This document shows positions 4,058 to 21,922 of a DNA stretch of 24,000 nucleotides, one piece after another. The notes beneath the pieces were generated by a model. The model ran no database searches and was not told the DNA's origin. It saw only the letters and a program-made list of their open reading frames with translations. The stretch's first letter is position 1; every line of letters starts with the position of its first letter. The position numbers were made by a program, and so were the translations under genes. The stretch lies in assembly GCF_019880245.1 (NCBI RefSeq), contig NZ_CP082286.1, positions 676,521 through 700,520 of the forward strand, given 5' to 3'. This stretch comes from Halobaculum roseum (GTDB lineage Archaea; Halobacteriota; Halobacteria; Halobacteriales; Haloferacaceae).

Positions 4058-4862
4058 TAATTTCATAGCCTCGAATGAGGGTTCGTTCTTCCTAATCGCA
4101 GGGCCATGTGTAATCGAATCAGAAGAACAGGTAATGGAAACAGCGCATAAACTGAGCAAAATCACGGACCGTCACGAAATTGACTTGATATTCAAGAGCT
4201 CGTTTGATAAAGCAAACCGGTCATCAATCAGTTCCTACCGCGGCCCTGGAATGGAACGAGGGCTGGAAATCCTTCAGCAGGTTAAAGATGAGTACGATCT
4301 TCCGGTAATAACAGATTTTCACGTTCCTGAACAAGCTGCACGGGTCGCAGAAGTGGTTGACGTTCTCCAAGTGCCTGCGTTCCTCTCACGACAAACCGAT
4401 ATGCTTACTGCTGCCGGAAAAACAGGTCTGCCGATCCATGTAAAAAAAGGGCAGTTCCTCTCAGCGGACGGAATGGATAATGTCATCAACAAAATAGAAT
4501 CCACAGGGAATGAACAGATCATGCTCTGTGAACGCGGTGAGATGTTCGGATACAACAATCTCGTCGTGGATATGCGGAATCTAGACATCATGAAAGAACT
4601 CGACAAGCCGGTCGTTTTTGATACGACACATTCGGTACAACGTCCGGGCGCACGCGGTGACTCCAGCGGCGGCGACCGTCGGTTTGCACCGACATTGGCT
4701 CGAGCAGCACTCAGTGCGGGAGTAGCAGGTATTTTCGCGGAGGTACATCCGAATCCACCGTCAGCGAAATGTGACGCCGCTACTCAGCTTCCCCTCAATG
4801 AATTTGAATCGCTTGTCAATCAGTGGAAAGCGATTGATGAAACGGTTAAAAATGGCAAGTAA
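4044..4862 (+). CDS. kdsA: 2-dehydro-3-deoxyphosphooctonate aldolase (Kdo-8-phosphate synthase), Cys-type (metal-dependent class)
   Basis: Near full-length by-eye alignment to KdsA: LIAGPCVIES, FKSSFDKANRSSISSYRGPG, ITDFHVPEQA, VDVLQVPAFLSRQTD, HVKKGQFLS, CERG..FGYNNLVVDMRNL, VFDTTHSVQRPG, SGGDRRF, GIFAEVHPNP..AKCDAATQLPL. The ATG overlaps the kdsC-kdsB stop by 14 nt. Confidence 0.95.
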   Translation: MKISDNFIASNEGSFFLIAGPCVIESEEQVMETAHKLSKITDRHEIDLIFKSSFDKANRSSISSYRGPGMERGLEILQQVKDEYDLPVITDFHVPEQAARVAEVVDVLQVPAFLSRQTDMLTAAGKTGLPIHVKKGQFLSADGMDNVINKIESTGNEQIMLCERGEMFGYNNLVVDMRNLDIMKELDKPVVFDTTHSVQRPGARGDSSGGDRRFAPTLARAALSAGVAGIFAEVHPNPPSAKCDAATQLPLNEFESLVNQWKAIDETVKNGK

Positions 4863-5844
4863 GGAGCAACAAGCAGGGGACGATGAGATTAGAGATGCTA
4901 TCTCCAAGGCCATTTTCGAGCAATCTAAATCTATCAAGACCCTCAACAATAAGGGAACAATTGAGCAGATCTGCCGTGTTGCCCTTGAAATAGACGATAC
5001 CGATGGTCGAATCGCTTTCTCAGGAATCGGTAAGTCCGGCGATGTCGGCAAGAAGATCGTTGACACATTCAACAGTATCGGAGTGACTTCACATTTCGTC
5101 CATCCTGTTGAGGCACTTCACGGGGATATTGGAGCGCTATCCTCGGGGGATGTGATGATACTTATCTCGAACAGCGGCAATACCGAAGAAATGGTGGAAT
5201 TATTAAAGTTTTCCGAGTATTTCGGGCCAACGACAGTTTCCATCACGTCTAATCCGGATTCTGAACTTGCACAACAATCAGAGTTCCATATCAATACAAA
5301 AGTGAGTAACGAAGGAGCCGTAGTTGACCTTGTTCCGATGGCAAGTGCCACAGTCACGATGGTTATTGGGGATTGTCTCGCAAATGCGCTGATGACGATG
5401 CAAGACTTCGACAAAACCCAGTATGGGCACTTCCATCCTAGCGGTACGATTGGCAAGCGGCTTTTATTAAATGTGAGTGACCTACTTTATAAAGATATTC
5501 CACGAACAAAGCCATCTGACACGCTAGGTAAAGCCATCGTTCACATGAGTGAGGGTGAGAAGGGGATCGCGGTCATTCGTGATGACCAAGATCTCGTCCA
5601 GGGAATTTTAACAGATGGAGATATACGACGTCTTGTTGAGTCTGGAACTGATTTTAACGGTGTGACCGCAGAGGAAGTCATGACCACTGACCCAGTTGCT
5701 GTATCACGTGATGATTCCGCTATCAAAGCCTTAGAAACTATCGAGAAACATGACATTACACAGGCTCTCGTTACAACCGACGAAGGGAGATTTGAGGGAG
5801 TAATACATTTACATGATATAATGGACGAAGGGCTATCTAACTAG
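4852..5844 (+). CDS. kdsD: Arabinose-5-phosphate isomerase (KdsD/KpsF type: SIS domain + tandem CBS)
   Basis: SIS motifs are present (FSGIGKSGDVGKKI, FVHPVEALHGDIG, ISNSGNTEE, GHFHPSGTIGKRLL), followed by two CBS repeats (GILTDGDIRR, GVIHLHDI). The listed ORF starts at 4771, but the ATG at 4852 (MASKEQQ...) overlaps the kdsA stop (aATGgcaagTAA), and homology begins after it, so 4852 is preferred. Confidence 0.92.
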   Translation: MASKEQQAGDDEIRDAISKAIFEQSKSIKTLNNKGTIEQICRVALEIDDTDGRIAFSGIGKSGDVGKKIVDTFNSIGVTSHFVHPVEALHGDIGALSSGDVMILISNSGNTEEMVELLKFSEYFGPTTVSITSNPDSELAQQSEFHINTKVSNEGAVVDLVPMASATVTMVIGDCLANALMTMQDFDKTQYGHFHPSGTIGKRLLLNVSDLLYKDIPRTKPSDTLGKAIVHMSEGEKGIAVIRDDQDLVQGILTDGDIRRLVESGTDFNGVTAEEVMTTDPVAVSRDDSAIKALETIEKHDITQALVTTDEGRFEGVIHLHDIMDEGLSN

Positions 5845-7029: not shown

Positions 7030-7262
7030 CGAGCTGGATGGGTTCGATACAAAGAAAAATCACATCGTAAAGGTTCGGTTGTATACACCGATGTTGGCAC
7101 TGCTAGTAAGTCATTAGATGCTGGCGGTAGTGACGGAATATGCCGATGACCAGGCCAAAGCGCTAGGACCTTCCAGTCGCCGACCAAGCTCATCCCTACT
7201 ATCTGGATGAGTTCCCCGGCTACTCGCCACTGCCGCTGTTGGAGAACCTCATCAAGATATAG
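7030..7262 (+). pseudogene. Decayed C-terminal remnant of an IS1595-family-like transposase
   Basis: Two frames separated by stops and frameshifts read ...HRKGSVVYTDVGTASKSL... and ...ADQAHPYYLDEFPGYSPL...*. These resemble the conserved (G)xxVxTD and YLDEFxFR blocks of the IS1595 DDE C-terminus. There is no intact ORF. The 134-aa minus-strand ORF over this region looks non-coding. Confidence 0.35.
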
Positions 7263-9039: not shown

Positions 9040-10056
9040 ATGTTAGATTGGGAAGACCAAACTGTCCTAGTGACGGGCGGAGCCGGGTTTATCGGTTGCT
9101 TTCTTACGGAGAAGCTTCTCGGCCGCGACGCTAATGTAGTCATAGCGGATAACTTCTCACGTGGCGACTTCAACAAAATATCTCATCTCGAAGACGAAAT
9201 CGAGATTCGTCCCGTCGATTTGACGACACACAAAGGCTGTGTCGAAGCTACCGAAGGGGTTGATCAAGTTTTCCATCTTGCCGCTTCAGTAGGTGGAATC
9301 CACTATATTCAGCGAGAGAATGTCCATGGTCTTACTCCATCGGTGCTCATGAACCAGCACATGCTGGAAGCCGCGAGGATTAACCATATTGAGAGCTTTA
9401 TGTTCGCCTCCTCTGCTTGTGTCTACCGGCAACAACATGACGGTCTGAATCGGTTTTCTGAGGAGCAAGCTATTCCAGCCAATCCTCACAGTACATACGG
9501 TTGGGCGAAGATTCTCGGTGAGGTCGCTTGTGATGCATATCACACAGACACAAGTGTCGATACTGGCGCTGTCCGTATCTTCAACTGTTACGGTCCACGC
9601 GAGAGCCTTAACCCTGACAGTAGCCATGTTATTCCCTCTCTGTGTCGTAAGGCTATCGAGGCCGAAGACGGGGATAGCATCGAGCTCTTCGGTGACGGCA
9701 GTCAAGAACGCGGGTTCATCTACGTTACCGACTTGGCTGAAGGCATGATTAGAGCGATGGAAGAGAAAACCGATGGCGAACCCATTAATCTCGGAAATGG
9801 CGACGAAGTCGTCTCTATCAATGAACTCGCAGAAACAATTGTTGATATCAGTGGTAAGGACCTCGAAATCGAACACGACCTCTCGAAGCCTACAGGGACA
9901 GACAAATATGCTATCGACGATACGAAAATGAAAAACGAACTCAATTGGGAACCAAGTATATCGCTCAAAGAAGGGCTCGAAAATGTATATGAGTGGGCAG
10001 AGTCTGAGCTCGAAGGAGCTAAGCAGAAAGCAGTCGCAAACGGAGGAAACCAATGA
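9040..10056 (+). CDS. NAD-dependent sugar-nucleotide epimerase/dehydratase (extended SDR), paralogue 1
   Basis: Rossmann motif VLVTGGAGFIG; catalytic SSACVY ... YGWAK (S...YxxxK); RIFNCYGPRE; 338 aa. Confidence 0.92.
   Translation: MLDWEDQTVLVTGGAGFIGCFLTEKLLGRDANVVIADNFSRGDFNKISHLEDEIEIRPVDLTTHKGCVEATEGVDQVFHLAASVGGIHYIQRENVHGLTPSVLMNQHMLEAARINHIESFMFASSACVYRQQHDGLNRFSEEQAIPANPHSTYGWAKILGEVACDAYHTDTSVDTGAVRIFNCYGPRESLNPDSSHVIPSLCRKAIEAEDGDSIELFGDGSQERGFIYVTDLAEGMIRAMEEKTDGEPINLGNGDEVVSINELAETIVDISGKDLEIEHDLSKPTGTDKYAIDDTKMKNELNWEPSISLKEGLENVYEWAESELEGAKQKAVANGGNQ
9136..9150 (+). repeat. In-gene copy of the exact 15-nt direct repeat GTAGTCATAGCGGAT (encodes VVIAD of epimerase 1)
   Basis: Identical to 8950-8964, 186 nt upstream. 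Confidence 0.8.
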
Positions 10057-11069
10057 GCTGGGACGGTGAACGCGTTCTCGTTACAGGCGGTGCCTCATTC
10101 ATTGGATCGCACTTAGTTGAAGATCTCGTCGCGGAAGGGGCGAACGTCCGTGTCGCGGATGACTTTTCTAGTGGAGAAACTGGAAACATCGAAGCTGTCG
10201 AGGACGAGATCGAAATCCTTCGTGGAAATCTAAAACACTGGGACTTCGCGGACGAGGCGACCGAAGACATAGATACGGTCTTCCATCTCGCAGCCGACCA
10301 CGGCGGGCGGGGATACATCTCTCAGTACCCCGCGAACTGCGCCACGAACATGGCGCTGGACAACATCGTCTACGAGGCCGCCGCGAAGAACGGAGTCGAC
10401 CGAATCAGTTTCGCCTCCAGCGCCTGTACGTATCCGACTGACATCCAGCAGGAGCGCCAGCGCCTCAGCGAGGACATGGTGAGCTTCGAGGAACGTGGAG
10501 GCGCCTACGCTGACGAGGTGTACGGCTGGGCGAAGCTCATGGGTGAACGCTCGCTCCAGGCGTACAACGAACAGTATGACATCGATACCAGCGCCGTTCG
10601 GATCTTCACGGCGTACGGCCCGCGTGAAAACGAAACCCACGCGATCGTCGCGTTCATGGCGAAAGCCTACGCCGGACAGGATCCTTTCCAGATCTGGGGT
10701 GACGGCGAGCAGACGCGGAACTTCACCTACGTGAAGGACATCACGCGCGCACTTCGCCTCGCCGCCGAGAATATCACTGACGGCACCCCGGTCAACGCCG
10801 GTATCAGTCGGTACGTGACGATGAACGAGGCCGTCGAGATCATCTTCGACTATCTCGACTGGGAGCCGGACGAGATCAACTACATGACGGACAAGCCGGT
10901 CGGGGTTCGCCATCGTGCGGCCGACACCACCCGTGCTGAGGAACTCCTCGGGTGGGAACCCGTGTACACCGTCGAGGAAGGGATCAAGAACACACTCGAT
11001 TGGTACGTCGAGAATCGCGACAAGGAGTACGTTCGGGAGAACCTCGAAACACTCCTCCACGAGCGCTAA
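10053..11069 (+). CDS. NAD-dependent sugar-nucleotide epimerase/dehydratase (extended SDR), paralogue 2
   Basis: VLVTGGASFIGSHLV, SSACTY ... YGWAKLMGE, RIFTAYGPRE. It is also 338 aa and roughly one-third identical to paralogue 1 by eye. It overlaps the upstream gene by ATGA. Confidence 0.92.
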   Translation: MSWDGERVLVTGGASFIGSHLVEDLVAEGANVRVADDFSSGETGNIEAVEDEIEILRGNLKHWDFADEATEDIDTVFHLAADHGGRGYISQYPANCATNMALDNIVYEAAAKNGVDRISFASSACTYPTDIQQERQRLSEDMVSFEERGGAYADEVYGWAKLMGERSLQAYNEQYDIDTSAVRIFTAYGPRENETHAIVAFMAKAYAGQDPFQIWGDGEQTRNFTYVKDITRALRLAAENITDGTPVNAGISRYVTMNEAVEIIFDYLDWEPDEINYMTDKPVGVRHRAADTTRAEELLGWEPVYTVEEGIKNTLDWYVENRDKEYVRENLETLLHER

Positions 11070-12332: not shown

Positions 12333-12851
12333 TCAGAGCGTTCGAGCCCGCCGAATGATCTCCTCGTAGCCCGGTTCGATATCCTCGTCTTGCGTTTCGA
12401 AGGCGTTCATCTCCCAGAAGCGTGCAGCACCTGCATCCGATCCCGGCTCTGGGTGGCCGTCCGTCACACTTCGATCAACTCGATAGATAATGACTACTAC
12501 GTTCTCTCGCTGTCCCGCAGTCACGAACGCGGTATCGAATAATTCGAGATCCTCAGCGGAAGCACTCACTCCCGTTTCCTCTTCGAGTTCACGGACAGCT
12601 CCGGTTGCGGGAGGTTCATCGTATTCGAGAAATCCCGCCGGAACGCTCCACGTTCCAATACCTGGGGGCTGGGTTCGCTTCACGAGCAATACGCTTCCGT
12701 CGTCCACAACTAGGACGCCAGCGCAGGGCTTAGGATTCCGGTAGACTGGTTTCTCACACGAGGTGCAGTACGCTCGGGGACGGTCCTCGATCACTCGTGA
12801 AGTCAACGTATCGCCACAGTCGGGGCAGTACTGCGGCGCCTGTTCGTCCAT
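12333..12851 (-). CDS. Nudix hydrolase with N-terminal C4 zinc ribbon
   Basis: CPDCG...CTSCEKPVY zinc ribbon followed by the Nudix box GFLEYDEPPATGAVRELEEETGV. The listed ORF begins at a TTG (12881); the ATG at 12851 (MDEQAPQYCPDCG) is preferred. It is convergent with the GT4 gene with a 3-nt gap. Confidence 0.88.
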   Translation of the reverse strand: MDEQAPQYCPDCGDTLTSRVIEDRPRAYCTSCEKPVYRNPKPCAGVLVVDDGSVLLVKRTQPPGIGTWSVPAGFLEYDEPPATGAVRELEEETGVSASAEDLELFDTAFVTAGQRENVVVIIYRVDRSVTDGHPEPGSDAGAARFWEMNAFETQDEDIEPGYEEIIRRARTL

Positions 12852-12905
12852 ATGCTCACCAGCGGATACTCCGATAAGCAAGTTGCTGTCGGTCGGAATT
12901 CGATA

Positions 12906-13043
12906 CTACTTGTGCGCGTGTTCTTCGCAGTAGAACACGATACGCCCCCGAACGTCGATATCGTGGTATTCGGCGGGGTCATCACAGACGACACACTCAC
13001 GCTCACCCCCGTGCTTGGGCTTTTGTTCCAAGAGCTGAGACAC
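12906..13043 (-). CDS. Possible small zinc-finger protein (45 aa from GTG; 59 aa if TTG at 13085 is used)
   Basis: This frame is absent from the ORF track because it has no ATG and is under 60 aa. It reads (V)SQLLEQKPKHGGERECVVCDDPAEYHDIDVRGRIVFYCEEHAHK*. It has a CxxC...CxxH arrangement, acidic composition and mostly G/C third positions, and it lies in an otherwise unassigned 290-bp gap. The start codon is uncertain. Confidence 0.3.
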   Translation of the reverse strand: MSQLLEQKPKHGGERECVVCDDPAEYHDIDVRGRIVFYCEEHAHK

Positions 13044-13169
13044 AGGGTGGAGTCCGGTGGCAGACTCTTTGGTATAGACCGACAACCATCGAACAATCGG
13101 GACCTATATGAGCAGAAGTTATATCATTGAATCGCTCTCGACTTCGGATTCCTATCGATCAGAGTCACC

Positions 13170-13406
13170 TCACTCTTCCCGGGGATCGGTGACGAACCGG
13201 TACAGTCCCCGATTCACCTTCTCAACCCATCCCGCATCAACGAGTCCCCGCAACGATCGGTTGATGTATTGTCGGCGAATGTCTAATTGCTCCTCCATCC
13301 GTTTCGGGTTCGCATAGCCCCATGGACGTCCCTCTTCTCGTCCGTCTTTGAGAATATCGAGAATCGCCTCCTGGCGGTTATCGGGCTTGAACCCCTCGTT
13401 GACCAT
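13170..13406 (-). CDS. Small winged-helix DNA-binding protein (PhiH1-repressor-like / MarR-like wHTH)
   Basis: 78 aa. The pattern RQEAILDIL...YANPKRMEEQLDIRRQYINRSLRGLVDAGWVEKVNRGLYRFVTDP shows a recognition helix plus wing, typical of small haloarchaeal proviral or plasmid regulators. Confidence 0.8.
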   Translation of the reverse strand: MVNEGFKPDNRQEAILDILKDGREEGRPWGYANPKRMEEQLDIRRQYINRSLRGLVDAGWVEKVNRGLYRFVTDPREE

Positions 13407-13520
13407 AGTACCACGAGAAGAATCCCGGAGCCATTTACAGATTCGGGGATAGCACTCGGCTAGTTCTTTTAGAAGTTACAAAGTAACAGTTAAGCGAAGG
13501 TGAGGTTAACTGCAGTACGA

Positions 13521-13582
13521 GAAGCGCGGGATCCCGACTCAGAAGTGGGGTCGGTGCTGGAGACACCGGATCCCCGCGCTTC
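13521..13582. repeat. Imperfect inverted repeat / nested hairpin upstream of the LAGLIDADG gene
   Basis: GAAGCGCGGGATCC (13521-13534) pairs with GGATCCCCGCGCTTC (13568-13582; one extra C). An inner pair CCGAC/GTCGG lies in the intervening sequence. Confidence 0.6.
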
Positions 13583-13675
13583 GCCACCACGACGAAGCAT
13601 GACGAACACGGAGAGAACGCGGCAAGAACCCATCGAACAGATTTCCGACTACCACCAGCGACAGGGGAGGGTGAC

Positions 13676-14653
13676 ATGATGCGCTACGAGTGGCTCGATG
13701 AAAGCATAGACGAGCTCGCCGAGCGCTACGATGCTGGCCAGTCACTCCGAGAGATCGCAGACGAGTTCGGCGTCTCGACACCGACGATCCACAACCGGTT
13801 GAAGGACCACGACGTGTCGATGCGAAACGGCGGTCCGGAGTACGTCCGCTTGGAACACAGAACCGACGAACTCGTCGCCCAATACGTCGACCACGACCGC
13901 TCCGCCCAAGCGATCGCCGACGACTACAACACCTCTCGTGCGGCGATCCGGTATCACCTCGAACAGGCGGGTGTCGACTACACGCCACCCGCTTCGAAGA
14001 CGGCGGACCTCGATTTCAACCCGTATCAGGTCTCGCTCATTCAGGGCGAACTCCTCGGTGATGGGTGCCTCCACCGTCGAACGGACGAGGGGTGCTTCTT
14101 CCAGCTCTCGACGACAACGGAGTCACATGCGGTGCGACTTATCGAGAACCTTCCCGAGAGCCTCTTTCCGGACGGCCAGCCAAACAAGTTCACCCGGGAG
14201 AATCACTTCAACGGGGAGGACTACACGATGTGGACGGTCACGTCACGTCCTCAGTCGCGCTTCGAGCAGCTGTACGAGGATTGGTACGAAGTTCGGGAGG
14301 AGAACAACCGGAAGGTCGTCCCGGAGGCGTTCACTCTCGACAGGACCGCGCTCCTCCATTGGTATTGGGGCGACGGGAGTTGTTCGATTCGTGACCGCGG
14401 AGCACCCCGAGTCAGTTTCGCAACACACGGGTTCCCGGAGGCCTCCGTCGAACACCTCCGATCCGAACTGGATCGCCTGGGCTACGACAACTACGCCGTG
14501 GAACAGACGCACGTCGAGGACGGCTCCGGCCTGTTCATTCGCCTCCGAGACTACGACGCGCGCTCATTTCTGGAGGACTTCCGCCGGTTCAGTTCGCTCC
14601 CCGAGTACGACCACAAGTTCCCGGTTCCGATACGGGAGGACGAGTCCGTGTAG
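13676..14653 (+). CDS. Free-standing double-motif LAGLIDADG homing-endonuclease-like protein with two N-terminal HTH modules
   Basis: Two LAGLIDADG-type motifs are present, IQGELLGDGCL and LLHWYWGDGSCS, about 100 aa apart. The N-terminus has two sigma-70-region-4-like HTHs (GQSLREIADEFGVSTPTIHNRLKDH; RSAQAIADDYNTSRAAIRYHLEQAG). Confidence 0.85.
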   Translation: MMRYEWLDESIDELAERYDAGQSLREIADEFGVSTPTIHNRLKDHDVSMRNGGPEYVRLEHRTDELVAQYVDHDRSAQAIADDYNTSRAAIRYHLEQAGVDYTPPASKTADLDFNPYQVSLIQGELLGDGCLHRRTDEGCFFQLSTTTESHAVRLIENLPESLFPDGQPNKFTRENHFNGEDYTMWTVTSRPQSRFEQLYEDWYEVREENNRKVVPEAFTLDRTALLHWYWGDGSCSIRDRGAPRVSFATHGFPEASVEHLRSELDRLGYDNYAVEQTHVEDGSGLFIRLRDYDARSFLEDFRRFSSLPEYDHKFPVPIREDESV

Positions 14654-14693
14654 GGTTCTCAGTCACTGTCTGCGACTGTAACCACCGCCCCTA

Positions 14694-15212
14694 ATCACCT
14701 ACGCCCACCAGCGCGACCAGAACGGGCTCGCACACGCCCTCCTCACCGTCGAGGAGCACATCGACGACGACTTCATGCTCATCCTCGGCGACAACGTCTT
14801 CGAGGCGAACCTCCAGGACGTGGTTCGCCGACAGGCCGAGGACCGAGCGGACGCCGCGTTCCTCGTCGAGGAGGTCCCGATCGAAGACGCCTCACGCTAC
14901 GGCGTCTGTGACACCAACAAGTACGGCGAGATCGTCGACGTGGTCGAGAAGCCCGATGACCCGCCTTCCAACCTCGTGATGACCGGCTTCTACACCTTCA
15001 CCCCCGCCATCTTCCACGCCTGCCACCTGGTGCAGCCCAGCGACCGCGGGGAGTACGAGATCAGCGACGCGGTCGGATTGCTCCTAGAGAGCGGCCGGAC
15101 GATCGACGCGATCCCGCTGGACGGCTGGCGGCTGGACATCGGGTACCCCGAGGACCGCGACGAGGCAGAGCGTCGCCTGAGCGACGAGGTGGAGCCGGAA
15201 GCCGAAGCCTGA
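14694..15212 (+). pseudogene. 5'-truncated sugar-phosphate nucleotidyltransferase (RmlA/GalU-like); N-terminal ~75 aa including the GxGTRLxPxT loop are missing
   Basis: The frame is open from the stop at 14679 and reads ITYAHQRDQNGLAHALLTVEEHIDDDFMLILGDNVF...VEKPDDPPSNLVMTGFYTF...GEYEISDAV...DGWRLDIGYPEDR. This matches the central and C-terminal parts of the NTP_transferase fold. No N-terminal nucleotide-binding loop is present, and the only ATG is internal (14775). Confidence 0.8.
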
Positions 15213-15444
15213 GCGGTCACACGGCGGCAACACGGGACGGAGAGATTGCACGAGCGACCACAGGGGGGCGAGGACCCGAACCGACGCGAGCGCGCTCTCG
15301 GAGCCCTGACGGCTGGTGAGAGCCCACGCACACCCACACTTGTTTGGACGGGTACCTGTGGGTGCGTCTCGAAGACCGGTAGTCTGTGGATCAACTGGAG
15401 ACGTGTTCGGTGTACCACCAGGTGTCAGCGGGCGAGCTTCCCCA

Positions 15445-15915
15445 TCACGGAAGTCCAGACTGCGTGTTGAGGACCTGTTCGTCAGTTGCGGTGACAGCGG
15501 CCCACCACATCGTCAATACGGCGAGCGTGACCAACTCTGGAGGATGAGTCTCACTGATGCACGACTGCTCGTGTCGCGACAGCTCATCAGGCGGGTGGAA
15601 ATGGAGAACCGGATGGTCTGTGGCCTGGTTGGACGCTTCCCGCCCGAACCGGAACTCGAGTCCCTTCTCCCGGTAGTGGTTCGTGTAGTCGCCGTTCTCC
15701 CACCATTGGATATCGAAGTATCCACCATCCTGGTGGATTCCTGGAGCGACTGTCACTCTCGCCTCTCGAACCCTCCCTCGTTTCTCCGTGAATTCGTCGT
15801 GCTGCGTGTGGCGAAACCGAGGCGCACGGAAGCCTTCGTCGAGTTGGTTCGCGATCGTGTTGACGCTGGTGAGGATCGCGTCCGAATCGAGCGGTGATCC
15901 GTTTCCCATCACCAT
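15445..15915 (-). CDS. 156-aa protein, putative toxin/effector partner of the upstream wHTH protein; paralogue of 20091-20597; distant DUF6516/TumE-like signature
   Basis: YFDIQWWENGDY...LEFRFGREASNQATDHPVLHFHPPDE parallels FYVIQWIESDRD...LMLGWHQDETHMDLGECHLQIDHQGE in the 168-aa ORF. The start overlaps the stop of the upstream gene (ATGGTGATG). Confidence 0.75.
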   Translation of the reverse strand: MVMGNGSPLDSDAILTSVNTIANQLDEGFRAPRFRHTQHDEFTEKRGRVREARVTVAPGIHQDGGYFDIQWWENGDYTNHYREKGLEFRFGREASNQATDHPVLHFHPPDELSRHEQSCISETHPPELVTLAVLTMWWAAVTATDEQVLNTQSGLP

Positions 15916-16538
15916 TTCTGAACTCGCAGTTCGTCGGAAGCGCCCTCGAACTCATCCGCCGCAGGGGTGCGTCGCTTCGCCTGTTGGATACGGTACGCTG
16001 CACGGAGGTACTCGAAGTCCCGCATCGCTGTCCGCCAGTGCGACACGTCCGTCAGCTCTTGTTCGGAGAGTTCCCGGTCGGAAACGAGGAGTTCTTCGGG
16101 GGATTCGGTGTCGTACGCGTCCCGGTACTCGGCGATTTCGGCCTTCAGGTCCTGGATCTGTTCGACGACGTCACCGGCGGTCGCAAGCTGGTGAATCTGC
16201 TCGATGAGATGCCGGTCGGGGTCTCGTTGGTAGACGGTCCCGGAGTCGGTGTGTCGAGCACTCGCGACGCCTTCCTCCGCGAGCGCCTTGAGGGCAGTTC
16301 GGGCCTTGCTCTCGGAGACGGCTGCAATATCGGCGATCTCGTTCGCCGTCTTTGGTGTCACCGTCCGCTTGATCACCGCTCGGAGTCGCTCGTCCGCCGT
16401 GGTTGACTCCTTCCACTCCGCTCTCGCGAACTCGTTGATATCGTCGAACGCTGCTCCGTCCCCATCGAACGGCGAGATATCTTCGGGAGAGACCGGTTCC
16501 TCAGGGACGTCTTCGGCGCTGGGAAACTCGTCGGCCAT
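15909..16538 (-). CDS. wHTH + coiled-coil DNA-binding protein (putative antitoxin/regulator), paralogue of 19524-20081
   Basis: Acidic N-terminal tail, then TADERLRAVIKRTVTPKTANEIADIAAVSESKARTALKALAEEGV (wHTH), then a helical region (VEQIQDLKAEIAEYRDAYDTESPEEL). Colinear similarity to the 187-aa ORF (TARERVREI...; IASIQADIDEWKSRFDVESWDEL). Confidence 0.8.
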   Translation of the reverse strand: MADEFPSAEDVPEEPVSPEDISPFDGDGAAFDDINEFARAEWKESTTADERLRAVIKRTVTPKTANEIADIAAVSESKARTALKALAEEGVASARHTDSGTVYQRDPDRHLIEQIHQLATAGDVVEQIQDLKAEIAEYRDAYDTESPEELLVSDRELSEQELTDVSHWRTAMRDFEYLRAAYRIQQAKRRTPAADEFEGASDELRVQKW

Positions 16539-16680
16539 GTCATTCTCTTACATCTATCGCCACATATCTTCATAGTTCAGAAATGTGGTCTACAGGCTGA
16601 GCAGGCCCAGTGCCTCGGGGCTTGACCCCGAAGCGGTTCACCGAGAGAGAATTAAGTGAGTTAGTGCCAAACGAGTATCT

Positions 16681-16932
16681 ATGGCCGTCGACCTCACAGA
16701 ACGCGTACAGGAGATCGCGAAGGCACGTGATGTCTCCGAGTCGGAGGTGCTTGAGCAAGCCCTCGAGCGGGGCGTCGAAACCCTGTGGCAAGACCTCGTT
16801 CTCTCTCGATATCTGAACGATGAGATCCCGCGCGAAGAAGCGGTCGAACTCGCCGGAGTAGACCGCGTCAAACGCGCAGAGCGCGAGGCCGAAGCCGTCG
16901 AAGAGGATGTGCGGTGGGGCTTGAACGCGTGA
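16681..16932 (+). CDS. UPF0175-type antitoxin-like protein
   Basis: 83 aa. LVLSRYLNDEIPREEAVELAGVDRV matches the UPF0175 core (al.lY..g.is...Aaelag). The stop overlaps the GTG of the downstream PIN stub (GTGA). Confidence 0.72.
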   Translation: MAVDLTERVQEIAKARDVSESEVLEQALERGVETLWQDLVLSRYLNDEIPREEAVELAGVDRVKRAEREAEAVEEDVRWGLNA

Positions 16933-17108
16933 TCGTCGCCGTTGCTGACACCGGCCCACTCATTCACCTTGGCGAAATCGATTCTCTTGACCTCTGTTCG
17001 GTCGTCGACAAACTACTCATTCCAGAGACTGTCTATGAAGAACTTCAGGCCGGCGGACCTCCGTCCGAACTCGCCGACATTGAAATTGAGAATAACCGAC
17101 ACATATGA
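16929..17108 (+). pseudogene. Truncated PIN-domain (DUF3368/COG2405-like) toxin; only the first ~59 codons
   Basis: VIVAVADTGPLIHLGEIDSLDL...LLIPETVYEEL matches the N-terminal third of ~150-aa DUF3368-type PIN proteins, then stops. No continuation was found in other frames. Confidence 0.6.
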
Positions 17109-17218
17109 CAACTAACATCCGACGGGCTGTATCGAACATCACACAGCTACCAGCTCTCACTGTCCTGCTCGTGGGTGGCGGCATCATCTAAGTCTGTACT
17201 CAAACATGTATTACCTGC

Positions 17219-18088
17219 TCAGCGGCGTCGAACTGTATCTCCGTCGCGCTCGAGAATCTGCTTTGCGACTAGTCGATCAATTGCTTCATCGACGGTGTCT
17301 TTCTGGTCGTCCGAAAGTGCTCGCACATTCGCGAGAACTCTATTCCGAAGTACTTCGACGTTGTCGATCCCATCGTCAACAGCACCCAGAACGGTATATT
17401 CGACCTCGAACTCCGTCGCGAACTCTGCGATACGAGCGGTGAACTTGTTTGGGAGCCCCGACAGTGAGTTTACCGCTATCTCGATAGTGAACAGGGGATG
17501 CGAACGATCACGGATCTGCCGTGCTTCAGTCGTGCCGGTATTGAAGGGTCGCTGTTCGTCGATCTCAGTGAGGATTGATTCGTAGTCCAGCCCACGCTGG
17601 GCGTATTTCCGCATATCTTCGATGTCACGTCGACGGCCACTCGCTAGATCACCGCCGGAAACCGCTTTCAGCAGGAACATATCCTCATCCGAGAGGATGA
17701 ACGCTGTTACCAAACTCCCGGTCCAGAACTCTTCGGCCCGGTCGCGCATCCGGTCGGTGATCCAGACTTTCCCGACGATCTGCTGTTCGAAGATATCGAT
17801 TCGAAAACCGCGCTTGTCGTGATGCAGTTCGACGGTTTTTCCGACGCCCTCGAACGACTCCGTTGGTTCGTCGACAACCGTGAATCCCTGTGACGTGAGC
17901 GTCTGGTAGACGTGTTCGAACTCAGAAAGAACACCCACCGCAAGATCGATATCTTCGGTTTGGTCTTTCAACCCCCGGACCGTCATCGCAGATCCGCCGA
18001 GGAGATACACCGTCACGGACTCCGATAGCCAGGTATCGAACTCCTCGAGGAACTCTTTGACCGCCTCGCCACCTTTGAATACCGTCAT
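17219..18088 (-). CDS. Pol-beta-superfamily nucleotidyltransferase (AbiEii/MNT-like) with a ~110-aa extra C-terminal domain
   Basis: NTase signature LLGGSAMTVRGLKDQTEDIDLAV (hG[GS]x9-13DhD), with a downstream helical region ILSDEDMFLLKAVSG...RRRDIEDM. The C-terminal part ends in a wHTH-like DRLVAKQILERDGDTVRR. ATGA overlap with the upstream regulator gene. Confidence 0.85.
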   Translation of the reverse strand: MTVFKGGEAVKEFLEEFDTWLSESVTVYLLGGSAMTVRGLKDQTEDIDLAVGVLSEFEHVYQTLTSQGFTVVDEPTESFEGVGKTVELHHDKRGFRIDIFEQQIVGKVWITDRMRDRAEEFWTGSLVTAFILSDEDMFLLKAVSGGDLASGRRRDIEDMRKYAQRGLDYESILTEIDEQRPFNTGTTEARQIRDRSHPLFTIEIAVNSLSGLPNKFTARIAEFATEFEVEYTVLGAVDDGIDNVEVLRNRVLANVRALSDDQKDTVDEAIDRLVAKQILERDGDTVRRR

Positions 18089-19056
18089 ACTACACCGTAC
18101 TGCTCTTTGAGCGCCATAAATTCTGATTCACTTGGAAGGACGACAGGGATCTCGTCCGAGTCTTCGACCCCTTCCTGTGGTGCCTGGTACATCGCAGCGA
18201 CCGTGGTTTCCAGATCGTACCACGTTGCCGTTTCTGTGAGCGTCTCCTGGTCGATATCTAACGCCTCGATCAACAACATTGCATAGCTAACCCGGCGGGA
18301 GCCGCTATCGAGGGCAAGCGTGTGACACACCACTTCGCCCGGTGTGAGTTCCTCGTCGGGCGCGTACCAGAACGCGGGCTCACCTGCAAGGAAGAATTGT
18401 AGCCCGTAATCCTCGAATCGACCAAGCCCGGTCACCTGCCAATCTGGTGCGTCTAGTAGCGCGTCTGTATCTTCAGTGGTCTGCACGCGGACGAGTGTTC
18501 GTTTCGGGTCGCACCACTCGATAGTCGCACTCGGCGCGATATCCCGGGCTCGCGATCGGTGCTCGTGGGTCACGACGGCCTGCGCGAACGCCAGCAGCGG
18601 TGCGAGGTCCTCACTTACCGCGTAATCGGGGCCGGACGGGGACAGCATTGCCCGGTTTTTGAGCGGCGACAGCGCCTTGTGAACGCCTTGTCGAGTAATC
18701 CCGAGTCGCTTTGCAATCTCGGATACTCGACGGGGTTCGTCGAGAAACCAGCACACTTTGAGGGCGGCGGGCGAGAGGAGGTCAGCCCATTCAACGTGAT
18801 TGAGCTTCGACTGCAGCGTCCGGTACGCTTCAATGACCGGGTGGTCCGCGACACGGACTTTCCGCTGGTTGTTGGGCCTACGGCGTTCGATCAAGAGCCC
18901 CGCGTCCAGCAAGTCATCGAGCACCTCGTAGATGTGTGTCTGTGAATACCCGGTTTCAGTTGCGAGATCCACTGGCGTCGCTTCTCGGCCGGTACTCAGA
19001 GCGTCAATCACGGCGATTCCGGCCTTTGAAATCACTGTGTATACCCTAAACCCCAT
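18085..19056 (-). CDS. Double winged-helix transcriptional regulator with a ~170-aa C-terminal domain (AbiEi-like putative antitoxin)
   Basis: wHTH 1 is IAVIDALSTGREATPVDLATETGYSQTHIYEVLDDLLDAGLLIERRR. wHTH 2 is LKVCWFLDEPRRVSEIAKRLGITRQGVHKALSPLKNRAML. The start may instead be GTG at 19035 (see the promoter feature). Confidence 0.85.
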   Translation of the reverse strand: MGFRVYTVISKAGIAVIDALSTGREATPVDLATETGYSQTHIYEVLDDLLDAGLLIERRRPNNQRKVRVADHPVIEAYRTLQSKLNHVEWADLLSPAALKVCWFLDEPRRVSEIAKRLGITRQGVHKALSPLKNRAMLSPSGPDYAVSEDLAPLLAFAQAVVTHEHRSRARDIAPSATIEWCDPKRTLVRVQTTEDTDALLDAPDWQVTGLGRFEDYGLQFFLAGEPAFWYAPDEELTPGEVVCHTLALDSGSRRVSYAMLLIEALDIDQETLTETATWYDLETTVAAMYQAPQEGVEDSDEIPVVLPSESEFMALKEQYGVV

Positions 19057-19059
19057 TCG

Positions 19060-19067
19060 TATATAAA
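19060..19067 (-). promoter_or_regulatory. TATA box (TTTATATA on the minus strand) for the wHTH-NTase operon
   Basis: It lies only 4 nt upstream of ATG 19056 but about 28 nt upstream of the in-frame GTG at 19035. That geometry fits a leaderless haloarchaeal transcript starting at the GTG. Confidence 0.45.
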
Positions 19068-19127
19068 GGCTTCTGGATTTAGGTTGACAATCGAGTTATT
19101 CCGGTACGATGTCTGCGAGTGCGTTCT

Positions 19128-19382
19128 CTAGAGACCCGTGGAATTGCCAACTCGCCCGCTTGAACGCCCCGCGGTCTGGATGTCGAGTTCTTCACCGGAT
19201 TCGTCCACTTCCCAATTCAGGGTCCCGAAGCAATGTACTTCGCAGAGTTGGCGGACTGCCTGTGCATCGATTACGATTGCGCCGGTCGATGTCGTCCAAC
19301 GTATACCGTCGTCATTCAAATCCGGTGCGTTGGCACGCTCATCGACGTCGGTCTTCAGTTCATTGCCCGGTTCGTCCATCAT
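19128..19382 (-). CDS. Hypothetical small acidic protein (84 aa from the ATG-ATG)
   Basis: This is the only frame in the 19.06-19.52 kb gap with halophile-like acidic composition (MMDEPGNELKTDVDERANAPDLNDDG...). The competing plus-strand ORFs are Arg/Ser-rich off-frame products. No recognisable motif. Confidence 0.4.
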   Translation of the reverse strand: MMDEPGNELKTDVDERANAPDLNDDGIRWTTSTGAIVIDAQAVRQLCEVHCFGTLNWEVDESGEELDIQTAGRSSGRVGNSTGL

Positions 19383-19492
19383 CTCCCACAGCAGGCCGAC
19401 CACAGAACGGGTGCCAAACGACACGCCTCGTACGTGTCGTTCATCCCGTCTCGTCTATTACTCTATCTCGGATATCTGTGACCCATCCAAAG

Positions 19493-19500
19493 AAATAATA
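19493..19500 (+). promoter_or_regulatory. TATA-like box AAATAATA for the 19524 gene
   Basis: Centred about 27 nt upstream of ATG 19524, consistent with a leaderless mRNA. The listed ORF start 19518 is a GTG two codons earlier. Confidence 0.4.
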
Positions 19501-19523
19501 GAAGAAGCCGCGTATCGGTGAGT

Positions 19524-20081
19524 ATGACTGACCGTGGACTCGACTCGTGGACTGACGACCTCACTGCACGAGAGCGTGTACGAGAGATCGCGACGACGAT
19601 CACCGAACCGCGATCTGTCGACTGGGTCCGTGAAGAAGCGCAGGTGTCGTCGTGGCAAACTGCGAAAGACGAGCTGGAGATGCTGGTCGACTTCGGGCAA
19701 GTACAGGCTGTTGAAGGCGACGACGGAAACAGGAAGTACGCGCCGAACTACCAGCGTCGCTACTTCGACGAGGTGGCCGAGTTGATCAACACGCACACGC
19801 GAGCAGAACTTCGTGATGAGATCGCCTCCATTCAGGCAGACATCGACGAGTGGAAGAGCCGATTCGATGTCGAATCCTGGGATGAATTAGAAGCGACGCT
19901 CACTGATGACGCCCTCGACAGTGAGGGGATTCGAGAGCGCAACCGCATACTACGCCAGTGGGAACGATACGAGGACAACAAGCGTCTCCTCAAACATGCG
20001 CTTGAACTCTACGACGACGCCCGGGAGCTTCACCCGGGCCGGAACGATTCATCGAACGCTTCGACCCCAGTCTCGCAGTAA
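19524..20081 (+). CDS. wHTH + coiled-coil DNA-binding protein (putative antitoxin/regulator), paralogue of 15909-16538
   Basis: LTARERVREIATTITEPRSVDWVREEAQVSSWQTAKDELEMLVDFGQV (wHTH), then RAELRDEIASIQADIDEWKSRFDVESWDELE (helical). Colinear with the 209-aa ORF. Confidence 0.8.
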   Translation: MTDRGLDSWTDDLTARERVREIATTITEPRSVDWVREEAQVSSWQTAKDELEMLVDFGQVQAVEGDDGNRKYAPNYQRRYFDEVAELINTHTRAELRDEIASIQADIDEWKSRFDVESWDELEATLTDDALDSEGIRERNRILRQWERYEDNKRLLKHALELYDDARELHPGRNDSSNASTPVSQ

Positions 20082-20090
20082 GATCGCTTA

Positions 20091-20597
20091 ATGATCTTTC
20101 TCGCAAACCGCGCGAATCTCGACGCCCGAAGACTACTCAATCGAATTCACAACCAACTACAGACACAGGTTTCGAACGATACCTCTCCAGTTGAGCAGGT
20201 GTGGTATCATACGTCTACTGGGAACAAAATCGGGGTCCGGGCGACAGTCACACCAGACCGATTTCTCGGCACCTCATACCCTGTGGATGAAGCGGAATTG
20301 CAGGTCTCGTTTGACGTTCCGAAGACCCACCCATACGACTTCTACGTGATCCAGTGGATCGAATCGGATCGGGACCTCATGCTCGGATGGCATCAAGACG
20401 AGACGCATATGGATCTCGGTGAGTGCCACCTCCAAATCGATCACCAGGGTGAAACCGTACAGCGGGAGACAGCCGAGTTTCTCGATGCACATCCGTTGAA
20501 CGTGTTTGACCGGCGAATCGATGATCTCGTGGATGTTCTCGATGTGGTGACGTGGGAAGACGGCGTCCCTCACCTCCCGAACGAAGCAGTCCGTTGA
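20091..20597 (+). CDS. 168-aa protein, putative toxin/effector partner; paralogue of 15445-15915; distant DUF6516/TumE-like signature
   Basis: See 15445-15915. It starts 9 nt after the upstream gene. Its stop codon lies within a few nt of the right end of the IS element. Confidence 0.78.
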   Translation: MIFLANRANLDARRLLNRIHNQLQTQVSNDTSPVEQVWYHTSTGNKIGVRATVTPDRFLGTSYPVDEAELQVSFDVPKTHPYDFYVIQWIESDRDLMLGWHQDETHMDLGECHLQIDHQGETVQRETAEFLDAHPLNVFDRRIDDLVDVLDVVTWEDGVPHLPNEAVR

Positions 20598-20750
20598 CAT
20601 CCTCCCCGCGCTGAAGCGCGAGGATTCCCACGTTGGGATATTGTGGTTTACGACGTGACCTGCTTTCGCGGTGCGAAGCATCCGCTCTCTTGGTCGAACA
20701 GGTACGTCGATGGCTGTGCCAACCAGCCGTTACTCCTATCCTCTGACCGA
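20575..20750 (-). ncRNA. Predicted TnpB omega-RNA (reRNA): scaffold overlapping the tnpB 3' end and the right-end hairpin, plus a flanking guide (limits approximate)
   Basis: Established TnpB architecture places the guide RNA at the tnpB 3' end and the right end of the IS. A bulged hairpin at 20599-20625 (ATCCT-CCC-CGCGC TGAA GCGCG AGGAT) sits between the tnpB stop (20648) and the IS end. No transcript evidence is available. Confidence 0.4.
20599..20625 (-). repeat. Right-end sub-terminal hairpin of the IS
   Basis: 10 bp in two helices with a 3-nt bulge and a TGAA loop (plus-strand reading). Confidence 0.65.
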
Positions 20751-21922
20751 GGACTTGGAGATACTTTCTGCCGGATGTTCTCAGCAGCGTTCACGTCCGC
20801 GTTCGCCACCGCGTCGCACTCGTCGCACACGTACAACCCGCGCTCCACACGGTTCGCGTCCCGCTTCTTCCCACAGGACGAACACGACTTCGACGTATCA
20901 CGCTCGGACACCAGTTCGACCGTGATGCCTTCCATCTCGGCTTTGTACTCAAACATCGAGGTGAAGCGGTCGAACGCCCACGAGTGCAAGTCGAGATTCC
21001 CGTGCGTTCCCCAGTCTTTCGACTTGTCGTTCCCCTCGTCTTCGCGGATACCAGAAAGGTCGCCCACCACGACCGTTCCAACACCTTCCTCAACACACCG
21101 CTGGACGATATGCCTGGAGAGCGTGTGGAAGTAGTGGGTTCGACGCTCCGACTTCTTCTGGTTCAACCGCGAAGCTTGGCGGGAATCAGGGTCGTCACAC
21201 TGGGCGAGACGCTTGCTGAAGTAGTAGTCGTCCTGCTTCAGACAGTTCAACGGGTACAGTTCGCCGTGACCGTTTTCGTAGGCGAGCGCGGCAAAGTTGT
21301 TGATCCCGAGATCAACACCCATCGTCTTTTCACCGGGAGCTTCAGCGACGTCAATCTCGATCCTGCAGACGAACTGTAGTCCCCACTCGTCACCAGTCCA
21401 GACTGCCCGAACCTGTTGGACGCTCTCCACGGCGGAGAGGTCAACGTCCGGGCGGATCTGGTACTCGCAGAGAGTGAAGTCCGACCAATACTCCTTGAGA
21501 CTCGATCCTTTGGAGAGTCGGACTCTCTCATACTCGGTGTCGAGTTTGAAGCCAGCGGTCTTGAACGTGACCGTGCTTCGCGGGTGGTCGTCGCCGTGTT
21601 TGCGGTACTTCGGCGGGTTCGCTCTCGTGTCCCCGTTGCGTCGTTTACCGTACCAGCCGTTGAACGCTTCAGCGAGTTCCTGAAGGACTCGCTGACTTGA
21701 CTGAGAATGCAGGTCATCATAGCGTTCGTGCGACTTCAGGTACGAGGTGAGTTCGTTGTGACCAGGGATGTGGCCGATTTCAGCCCATACGCGGTCACAA
21801 ACCCACCGTCCGACATTCCAGAGTTTCGAGGCGGCGACTCCGAGCGAATTGAGGTCGTCGGACACCTGTTCTTGGTTCCGTATGGAAGCAGTGTAGGTGC
21901 GGGTGACGACCTGTTTCGCCAT
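20648..21922 (-). CDS. tnpB: TnpB (IS1341-type RNA-guided endonuclease, OrfB_IS605 + Zn ribbon)
   Basis: RuvC-I is MGVDLGINNFAA. The zinc ribbon is CSSCG...CDEC. RuvC-III is ANADVNAAENI. The WAFDRF...FEYKAEMEGITVELVSERDTSKSC block is present. 424 aa. Confidence 0.95.
   Translation of the reverse strand: MAKQVVTRTYTASIRNQEQVSDDLNSLGVAASKLWNVGRWVCDRVWAEIGHIPGHNELTSYLKSHERYDDLHSQSSQRVLQELAEAFNGWYGKRRNGDTRANPPKYRKHGDDHPRSTVTFKTAGFKLDTEYERVRLSKGSSLKEYWSDFTLCEYQIRPDVDLSAVESVQQVRAVWTGDEWGLQFVCRIEIDVAEAPGEKTMGVDLGINNFAALAYENGHGELYPLNCLKQDDYYFSKRLAQCDDPDSRQASRLNQKKSERRTHYFHTLSRHIVQRCVEEGVGTVVVGDLSGIREDEGNDKSKDWGTHGNLDLHSWAFDRFTSMFEYKAEMEGITVELVSERDTSKSCSSCGKKRDANRVERGLYVCDECDAVANADVNAAENIRQKVSPSPRSEDRSNGWLAQPSTYLFDQESGCFAPRKQVTS

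Follow-up and report, generated by a model that had tools for sequence, protein, structure and literature searches.

A putative homing endonuclease module of haloarchaeal glycosylation islands and its junction with a truncated aglF gene in Halobaculum roseum

Introduction

The gene clusters for surface glycans of haloarchaea vary in the manner of bacterial serotypes and affect both virus sensitivity and mating, and how they are exchanged is an open question. A free-standing endonuclease of the LAGLIDADG_2 family has been reported in alternative glycosylation clusters of Haloferax by Shalev et al. (2018, Genes 9:172; PMC5867893), with the suggestion that it might initiate gene conversion of the glycosylation island. 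The present work deals with a free-standing LAGLIDADG endonuclease gene that is followed closely by a truncated aglF gene in Halobaculum roseum. The DNA analysed is a stretch of 24,000 nucleotides (nt) of contig NZ_CP082286.1 (positions 676,521 to 700,520 of the forward strand), which is called the window and is numbered from its first letter. A previous sequence-only reading of this DNA had proposed that the endonuclease gene was inserted into a sugar-phosphate nucleotidyltransferase gene, or had replaced its 5' part, and that it was flanked by a short duplication, an unusual footprint for archaea.

As judged by protein similarity, the H. roseum endonuclease is a further copy of the haloarchaeal family already published. 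It shares with the Haloferax protein the Pfam family, the glycosylation cluster setting and the location outside introns and inteins, so the novelty attributed to the footprint was anticipated by the 2018 report. The H. roseum copy differs from the Haloferax copies in the genus of its host, in the loss of both canonical neighbours and in the truncated aglF that it adjoins. A winged helix-turn-helix (wHTH) partner, a leader RNA, an upstream open reading frame (ORF), the sulfatase/GT4 site, empty sites and co-conversion tracts are not described in PMC5867893. The leader RNA and the architecture of the module seem to be new, as do its usual site and the evidence that it is transferred.

Comparable systems have been described outside the archaea. 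Free-standing endonucleases of T-even phages such as SegF (Belle et al. 2002, as cited by Shalev et al. 2018) are encoded by intergenic genes that are present or absent at a fixed site, with co-conversion of the flanks (intronless homing). All these features resemble those of the haloarchaeal loci, but the phage enzymes are of the GIY-YIG or HNH type and act during co-infection, whereas a LAGLIDADG protein on an archaeal chromosome, with putative cleavage activity, is concerned here. Geobacillus strains that lack the flagellin glycosylation island carry LAGLIDADG endonuclease genes at its locus (PMC5109656), a possible bacterial parallel, by analogy, of the endonucleases of glycosylation islands.

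Results

A conserved module in glycosylation islands

Comparison of the window with homologous loci (designated by L numbers) revealed that positions 13170-14653 are probably one copy of a module of about 1.5 kb, made up of a wHTH gene, a leader RNA, an upstream ORF and the endonuclease gene, which belongs to the glycosylation islands of Halobacteria. The truncation of aglF is likely to be a junction formed by deletion or illegitimate recombination at the rearrangement-prone 3' edge of this module, aglF being collateral damage and not the homing target. The features concerned are the following:

13170-13406, minus strand: small wHTH gene (78 amino acids), divergent from the endonuclease gene; left half of the module
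13475-13494, plus strand: divergent control region, read from the sequence, with the palindrome GTTAC-AAA-GTAAC (13475-13487) and the TATA-like TTAAG (13490-13494)
13521-13598, plus strand: structured 5' leader RNA with a three-helix junction, detected by covariation
13599-13679, plus strand: small upstream ORF (26 amino acids, MTNTERTRQEPIEQISDYHQRQGRVT), from its translation and homologues
13676-14653, plus strand: free-standing, single-chain LAGLIDADG endonuclease gene with tandem N-terminal helix-turn-helix (HTH) domains (325 amino acids), from Pfam
14654-14693, plus strand: 40-nt spacer with the junction, from alignments and sequence
14694-15212, plus strand: 3' fragment of aglF (UTP-glucose-1-phosphate uridylyltransferase), codon 73 to stop; pseudogene
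15445-15915, minus strand: ORF of 156 amino acids that also follows aglF in H. rarum; ancestral synteny on the right flank

About 40-41 clusters of endonuclease homologues, with 41-76% identity, were found, and all those with an organism name are haloarchaeal. Homologues with 50-68% identity are present in Haloferax gibbonsii, H. denitrificans, H. volcanii and the Atlit isolates. Every endonuclease locus with enough flanking DNA sits in a glycosylation gene cluster. This is also the situation in the window, where the neighbours are GT4, two epimerase, sulfatase and Kdo-type genes together with aglF, and where the endonuclease gene is not embedded in another ORF. The canonical order, present in about 20 loci, is sulfatase (-), wHTH (-), leader, upstream ORF, endonuclease (+) and GT4 (+), and tblastn searches placed the wHTH gene head-to-head with the endonuclease gene in nearly all related loci.

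The closest relative of the window copy is L012, with a continuous identity of 74.6% between window positions 13174-14640 and L012 positions 9260-10710 and with unrelated flanks. Since this homology ends at both edges of the module, the unit is a two-gene module and not the endonuclease gene alone. The ratio of non-synonymous to synonymous substitution rates (dN/dS) against L012 was 0.11 for the endonuclease and 0.08 for the wHTH protein (83% identity), and intact endonuclease copies gave values of 0.10-0.11, which correspond to purifying selection.

A second module with wHTH gene, leader and intact upstream ORF was found in the metagenome contig L031 (1867-4935), with no endonuclease gene after them. 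Three overlapping genes take its place, of which two are RAMP-like (Csm3/Cas7-like and Cmr3-like), and a GT4 gene comes next. The slot downstream of the leader can therefore hold different cargo.

The endonuclease

The 325-residue polypeptide contains both LAGLIDADG motifs, LLGDGCL (residues 125-131) and YWGDGSC (residues 229-235), and two N-terminal HTHs. These had been recognised in the sequence-only reading, and the Pfam matches, the structural model and the Foldseek search agree with it. A second ATG at 13679 would give a product of 324 amino acids (P0001), which matches an NCBI protein of Halobaculum roseum at 100%. The Pfam family LAGLIDADG_2 (PF03161) matches residues 121-267 with an E value of 2e-13, and Pfam HTH families match at about residues 9-53 and 63-98.

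An AlphaFold (AF2) model built on 32 homologues, with a predicted local distance difference test (pLDDT) score of 85.8, consists of two N-terminal three-helix bundles followed by a two-lobed alpha/beta core similar to I-SceI. A sequence search of the PDB with the endonuclease gave nothing useful, so that a fold search was needed. The best Foldseek matches of the core in the PDB were I-SceI (1r7m) and I-WcaI (6x1j), with an E value of 2e-10 and template modelling (TM) scores of 0.72-0.77 on the target, and bI3 maturase, WhiA (8dy7 chain I, E value 1e-5) and I-DmoI were ranked below them. The model and these matches display the pseudo-dimeric alpha-beta-beta-alpha-beta-beta-alpha fold. I-SceI and I-WcaI share this fold over endonuclease residues 113-320, approximately, including the two LAGLIDADG helices ended by aspartate, although sequence identity is only 16-21%. 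The gene of I-SceI, unlike the present one, resides in a mitochondrial group I intron, and its product lacks N-terminal HTHs. The additional 110 residues or so of the endonuclease, which form the two HTH bundles, weakly resemble the bipartite DNA-binding domain of mariner-type transposases.

Residues D128 and D232, which end the two LAGLIDADG helices, are invariant in an alignment of 32 sequences (A1), and from their position in the motifs they would be equivalent to D44 and D145 of I-SceI. WhiA is a bacterial transcription factor derived from a LAGLIDADG protein. It has the same scaffold combined with an HTH, but its HTH is C-terminal and its catalytic acidic residues have been lost, whereas in the endonuclease the HTHs are N-terminal and both aspartates are retained.

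The gene has its own start and stop codons and is not flanked by the halves of a host gene, so it does not belong to the intron- or intein-encoded class. No Hint or intein domain was present on the endonuclease or on the aglF fragment among the Pfam matches listed, and no intron family among the Rfam results listed, in agreement with the free-standing nature first ascribed to the gene. The name 'I-EndH', used by some databases, was not found in the literature searched. A defence-system role was also considered and rejected, the PADLOC results being insufficient (a generic 'homing endonuclease' model and weak AbiEi-like wHTH matches only).

Control region, leader RNA and upstream ORF

The 78-residue wHTH protein has weak, sub-threshold Pfam matches to HVO_A0261_N, TrmB and MarR_2. 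In the intergenic control region, the TATA-like TTAAG is located about 27 nt before the leader (helix P1). An alignment of 17 loci showed that this region is either kept or swapped for an analogous palindrome, ATTTTGC-TAA-GCAAAAT, followed by ATAAG. Positions 13475-13494 are predicted to be an operator and promoter, with a transcript that would start at the leader, near 13517-13521.

The leader is formed by helices P1 (13521-13530/13573-13582), P2 (13537-13540/13547-13550) and P3 (13552-13556/13564-13568). In the alignment A4 (17 loci), 97.8% of the cells were compatible with this pairing versus 38-51% for slid controls, and compensatory changes were found at 7 pairs; the observed values were reached by none of 500 shuffles. 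Essentially the same helices were predicted independently by RNAalifold. Several G-U pairs are compatible with the plus strand only, which marks the structure as a feature of the RNA. When the region was folded as a single sequence, the result was no better than shuffles (z = 0.18), the structure being visible only in the multi-locus alignment. A covariance model (R1) detected exactly one leader in each module locus that retains the upstream region and none in the empty-site loci described below. The leader RNA, of about 60-80 nt, is also present in L001-L004, L012-L020, L022-L025 and L028-L032. A cmscan search of positions 12800-15400 (E ≤ 5) gave no Rfam match for the leader, only a spurious microRNA match elsewhere, and a tRNA search of the region found nothing. 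A possible alternative hairpin, P4, could be formed by GCTTCG (13578-13583) and CGAAGC (13593-13598). It would use the 3' strand of P1 and end at the ATG of the upstream ORF, and its sequence is almost invariant across loci. Such an alternative beside a start codon suggests a switch.

The TGA codon of the upstream ORF overlaps the ATG of the endonuclease gene, which suggests translational coupling of both genes. Homologous upstream ORFs were found in 17 loci with the common N-terminus M-T-N-S-E-R-x-x-Q-E-P-V-E-Q. Nine intact ones share ECPVCGAVGLPERIxNHDC, and their stop codon overlaps or abuts the endonuclease start (for example L004 5840-5995 and L028 474-629). The form present in the window derives by internal deletion from this peptide of about 50 residues with the pattern C-x2-C...H-D-C. 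Internal deletions are also found in L001, L016 and L020, the zinc ligands have been lost in L003, L015, L018 and L023, and in L012 the upstream ORF is fused in frame to the endonuclease (P0003). The leader structure and the zinc-knuckle micro-ORF are probable control elements of a chromosomal nuclease.

With the model R1 (49 bits), a diverged version of the leader was also recognised in the IMG/VR contigs L117 (10228-10697) and L119 (2899-2990). In L117 it stands head-to-head with a distant small wHTH gene, before an unrelated operon, and the contig has Orc1/Cdc6 and HerA-like genes. The wHTH gene and the leader look like a portable regulatory cassette of haloarchaeal mobile elements.

Mobility and decay of the module

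The distribution of the endonuclease is patchy, with about 41 clusters versus more than 1300 GT4 homologues. Empty sites were identified in L112, L113 and L116 (Haloterrigena alkaliphila, Natronolimnobius sp. AArcel1 and Haloferax larsenii), where the sulfatase and GT4 genes are adjacent, separated by 80-200 nt, and where no wHTH gene, leader, upstream ORF or endonuclease gene was found. L115 was first chosen as a close empty allele, but it holds a 3' remnant consisting of the last 108 nt, approximately, of the endonuclease gene (3808-4000) upstream of an intact GT4 gene.

The comparison of L004 with L022 revealed a tract that covers the whole module and extends about 160 nt into the sulfatase gene on one side and about 50 nt into the GT4 gene on the other, and in which nucleotide identity is mostly 85-98% (83-98% over all windows compared), whereas the remainder of both flanking genes is only 55-80% identical. 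Synonymous divergence (dS) was 0.19-0.47 in the module and about 1.4 in the flanks. As far as can be read from these divergences, this is a recently transferred tract with short co-converted flanks. The reverse mosaic was found between L003 and L018, in which the flanks, the wHTH gene and the leader are 80-94% identical and the upstream ORF and endonuclease gene 40-70%. The dN/dS values for L004/L019 and the dS values for L003/L018 were unusable due to frame problems or saturation.

Frameshifted endonuclease copies are present in L022 (5001-5971), in L023, L024 and L025 (for example L023 5001-5959) and in L031 (1-637). The same frameshift in three separate metagenome contigs is probably real decay. 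No close relatives of the endonuclease were found on plasmids, in phages or in IMG/VR, where the matches had only 22-34% identity.

The gene located immediately 3' of the endonuclease gene is truncated or rearranged in several independent lineages. In L012 (10720-11772) the GT4 gene begins at about codon 35, directly after the endonuclease stop codon; only the last 50 GT4 codons are left in L001 (about 7050-7200), L002 (6321-6470), L016 (5223-5372) and L021 (937-1086), 100-130 nt after the stop; and in L017 (1931-2391) the GT4 gene is rearranged from about codon 12. Presence or absence at one conserved site and a history discordant with the flanks were thus found for the family, not for the window copy, whose context is non-canonical. 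These patterns fit an element of putative homing type that is usually located in the sulfatase/GT4 intergenic region.

The junction with aglF

In the window the module stands without either of its usual neighbours, and at its 3' edge it is connected to codon 73 of aglF. The TAG codon of the endonuclease gene is at 14651-14653 and the aglF homology starts 40 nt later, at 14694, which bears out the earlier description of a nucleotidyltransferase frame without its 5' part. From residue 73 the amino acid identity is 95-97.5% with the four closest Halobaculum orthologues and 88% with H. limi, and the fragment is 81-97.5% identical, from that residue to the C-terminus, to proteins annotated as AglF. 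The Pfam NTP_transferase match (PF00483) begins at profile position 75 of 245. The DNA homology with H. rarum (90.8% nucleotide identity) and Halobaculum sp. WSA2 also starts exactly at 14694. Residues 1-72, with the nucleotide-binding loop G-x-G-T-R-x-x-P-x-T, are missing from the fragment, so the domain is incomplete, and no trace of them was detected anywhere in the window by tblastn with six intact AglF proteins (E ≤ 10).

The aglF frame is closed by a TAA at 14679-14681, and the earliest possible start codon is the ATG at 14775, with none in between. As translation from 14775 would give at most 145 amino acids without the nucleotide-binding N-terminus that distinguishes the intact AglF of the Haloferax volcanii N-glycosylation pathway, the fragment is a pseudogene. 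In a three-taxon count, the codon changes on the H. roseum lineage were 15 synonymous and 4 non-synonymous, without stops or frameshifts, against 18 and 0 for the intact gene of H. rarum and 15 and 4 for that of WSA2. The fragment therefore gives no signal of relaxed selection, its count being the same as in one intact sister lineage, and from the open frame and the lack of decay it follows that the truncation is recent.

Over roughly its first 20 nt, the spacer has a loose similarity to the 3' flank of the Haloferax copies. At 14688-14698 there may be a microhomology, CCCC..A.TCAC, with aglF codons 71-73 (window CCCCTAATCAC versus aglF TCCCCATCAC; the intact aglF sequence around codons 65-80 is GGCGTCCCCATCACGTATGCCCACCAGCG). 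In the sister species H. rarum and WSA2, a divergent aglM gene (UDP-glucose dehydrogenase) stands before aglF, and this gene is missing beside the fragment in the window. Only the downstream 156-residue gene is retained, so that the right flank is ancestral and all that once stood to the left of codon 73 has been replaced. The identity of the 156-residue gene product with its H. rarum counterpart was 77% in tblastn, and window positions 15586-15916 were 86% identical to L010 10809-11139 in blastn.

The DNA before the endonuclease gene, about 250 bp that had been taken for a degraded 5' part of aglF, is the promoter region, leader and upstream ORF of the endonuclease itself. Leader and upstream ORF are conserved at about 20 loci without an adjacent aglF. 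The peptide GAGDTGSPRFATTTK (13553-13597) is a real translation, although it corresponds to an out-of-frame reading of helices P3 and P1 and not to an aglF remnant; ISDYHQRQG is likewise genuine as a translation, and it lies in the conserved upstream ORF. The 9-mer CCACCAGCG, whose upstream copy lies within the upstream ORF, is indeed present at both 13652-13660 and 14705-14713, with no further copy in the window. This is not above chance level, since two 251-nt segments had at least one 9-mer in common in 18% of shuffles and, among real segment pairs taken from the window, in 30%. A partial match to its upstream copy, ACCACCAG, is present at about the same place of the upstream ORF in L002, which has no aglF within 6 kb, so the 9-mer is not specific and a flanking duplication is not supported.

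Surrounding genes

The first 10,000 nt of the window form a glycosylation island of very low guanine plus cytosine (GC) content, 36-51%, while the window reaches about 67% elsewhere. The genes at 2864-5844 look like a pathway for CMP-Kdo or a related ulosonic acid. A methyltransferase, a sulfatase and two epimerases are also encoded in the island, and the ORF at 588-2432 (614 amino acids) had no Pfam match. Between the NUDIX and wHTH genes there is a candidate gene, an ORF of 59 amino acids (12906-13085, minus strand) with C-x2-C...C-x2-H spacing and no Pfam match. The region to the right of aglF (15909-21922) is variable, and in H. rarum a DUF7342 pair is located on the other side of aglM-aglF. 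The other features annotated are the following:

2864-4057: HAD-cytidylyltransferase fusion
4044-4862: KdsA-like protein (DAHP_synth_1)
4771-5844: SIS+CBS sugar isomerase
15909-16538, minus strand, and 19518-20081, plus strand: DUF7342 genes, one of them followed by a small partner ORF
16681-17108: ribbon-helix-helix gene overlapping a short downstream ORF
18085-19056: HVO_2833-type regulator
20648-21922, minus strand: TnpB/IS605 OrfB gene

Discussion

According to the explanation preferred here, the endonuclease would cut empty sites and the repair of the break would copy the module into them, as in the intronless homing of phages, with transfer in haloarchaea presumably taking place during cell fusion or mating. 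Expression of the nuclease would be kept low by the wHTH protein, the leader RNA and the upstream ORF. In H. roseum, a deletion or an illegitimate recombination within the glycosylation region, possibly mediated by microhomology, would have made the aglF junction, removing everything between the endonuclease gene and aglF codon 72, including aglM, and leaving a recent pseudogene. The endonuclease may have caused the break at aglF. In L005 (Haloferax sp. S1W) the endonuclease (+), GT4 (+) and aglF (+) genes lie in this order on the same strand, with aglF 4.5 kb downstream, so the structure of the window would result from a simple deletion at a locus of this kind.

Several points weigh against this explanation. 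The case for homing is built from comparative patterns alone, and the literature searches found neither a cleavage activity nor a target site for any member of the family. Exact insertion boundaries could not be mapped by comparing L004 with L112 and L113, or L005 with L116, because the intergenic DNA is too diverged. The truncation junctions are spread from 0 to 130 nt after the endonuclease stop and not at one fixed position, and the clustering of deletions on the 3' side is partly a matter of ascertainment, since the loci were collected by endonuclease similarity and deletions that remove this gene are not sampled. Strong purifying selection, conserved synteny and elaborate regulation would be equally expected of a domesticated regulator. 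Finally, a deletion in H. roseum is indistinguishable from a replacement of the whole left island by recombination with a crossover inside aglF.

Insertion of the endonuclease gene into aglF at the conserved motif ITYAHQREQNG, with a target-site duplication and a degraded 5' remnant left behind, was the explanation suggested by the first inspection of the sequence. AglF, with 83-96% amino acid identity across the haloarchaeal orthologues listed, is conserved as homing targets typically are, the break falls at the start of a conserved motif and both flanks share a 9-mer. The module does now occupy the place where the 5' end of aglF belongs, but the missing residues 1-72 were found nowhere in the 24 kb, and the supposed remnants are parts of the module that are present at loci without aglF. 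Every other copy of the endonuclease gene is found at another location, a recurrent one that lies between sulfatase and GT4 genes. Moreover, aglF is an unlikely target because it is intact at 1.3-4.5 kb from the endonuclease gene in L004 and L005, the junction of the window was found in no other locus compared and LAGLIDADG homing is not known to create target-site duplications. The two outcomes specified beforehand as contradicting insertion, an upstream region unlike aglF and other copies at other sites, were both obtained, and this explanation is considered very improbable. Practically no credence is given to a split or 'fractured' aglF, with its N-terminal half elsewhere and both halves assembled or trans-spliced. 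A free-standing endonuclease beside a gene fragment resembles arrangements described in the available part of Dassa et al. (2009), and the fragment is well preserved. Its preservation is explained by a recent truncation, however, and it has no start codon between the TAA and the ATG at 14775, no N-terminal half within the window and no intein or Hint signal among the Pfam matches mentioned above.

A domesticated, WhiA-like regulator of the glycosylation genes, acting with the wHTH protein and with an unrelated deletion in aglF, would explain why the family has been kept across genera under strong purifying selection (dN/dS about 0.1), always inside glycosylation clusters and beside the GT4 promoter. 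It would also agree with the two extra HTHs, with the regulator-like wHTH gene, structured leader and upstream ORF that accompany the endonuclease, and with the presence of WhiA among the structural matches. This is nevertheless judged unlikely. The catalytic aspartates are invariant, the HTHs are at the opposite end to that of WhiA and the best structural matches, I-SceI and I-WcaI, are active nucleases. In addition, most clusters that have this pair of sulfatase and GT4 genes lack the endonuclease, copies with frameshifts or reduced to remnants are frequent, the history of the module differs from that of its flanks and unrelated RAMP genes fill the slot in L031. A low probability is given to a swap of the whole island driven by the endonuclease, that is, a double-strand break and gene conversion in which a foreign glycosylation island of low GC content took the place of the native aglM-aglF region and one crossover fell within aglF. 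It can be regarded as a special case of the preferred explanation, with the endonuclease itself as the cause of the event. The module lies exactly at the boundary between an island of 37-60% GC on the left and the aglF remnant, with 63-67% GC and ancestral synteny, on the right. The absence of aglM, the neighbour of aglF in sister species, and the co-conversion tract seen between L004 and L022 also favour it, and such an island transfer was proposed by Shalev et al. (PMC5867893). However, nothing ties the break to the endonuclease, the module is without its own usual flanks and the left end of the replaced segment would be outside the window. Moreover, aglF would stay intact after a homologous crossover inside it, which means that the junction must be an illegitimate one. 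Deletion or illegitimate recombination at the 3' edge of the module therefore remains the preferred explanation of the truncated aglF.

These results have, in the first place, a corrective value, since there is no insertion into aglF and the apparent footprints are functional parts of the endonuclease module. The idea of an endonuclease-driven exchange of glycan clusters (Shalev et al. 2018, PMC5867893) also gains testable content, namely a defined mobile unit, a usual site whose empty alleles are candidate substrates, a co-conversion tract and repeated damage to the gene on the 3' side, which in H. roseum inactivates aglF. The leader RNA and the zinc-knuckle micro-ORF provide a tractable example of the regulation of a selfish gene in archaea. 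A further proposal, which is tentative and for the moment doubtful, is that the module is actively homing and self-regulated, that it invades the sulfatase/GT4 site, that by co-conversion and by faulty repair at its 3' edge it causes surface-glycan genes to be both exchanged and eroded, and that the leader of about 60 nt represents a cis-regulatory RNA class, so far undescribed, of haloarchaeal mobile elements. The new RNA class is proposed from the absence of the leader in Rfam and from its occurrence beside a wHTH gene on plasmid- or provirus-like contigs. If this proposal were true, the aglF truncation of H. roseum would be one captured example of the erosion of glycan genes.

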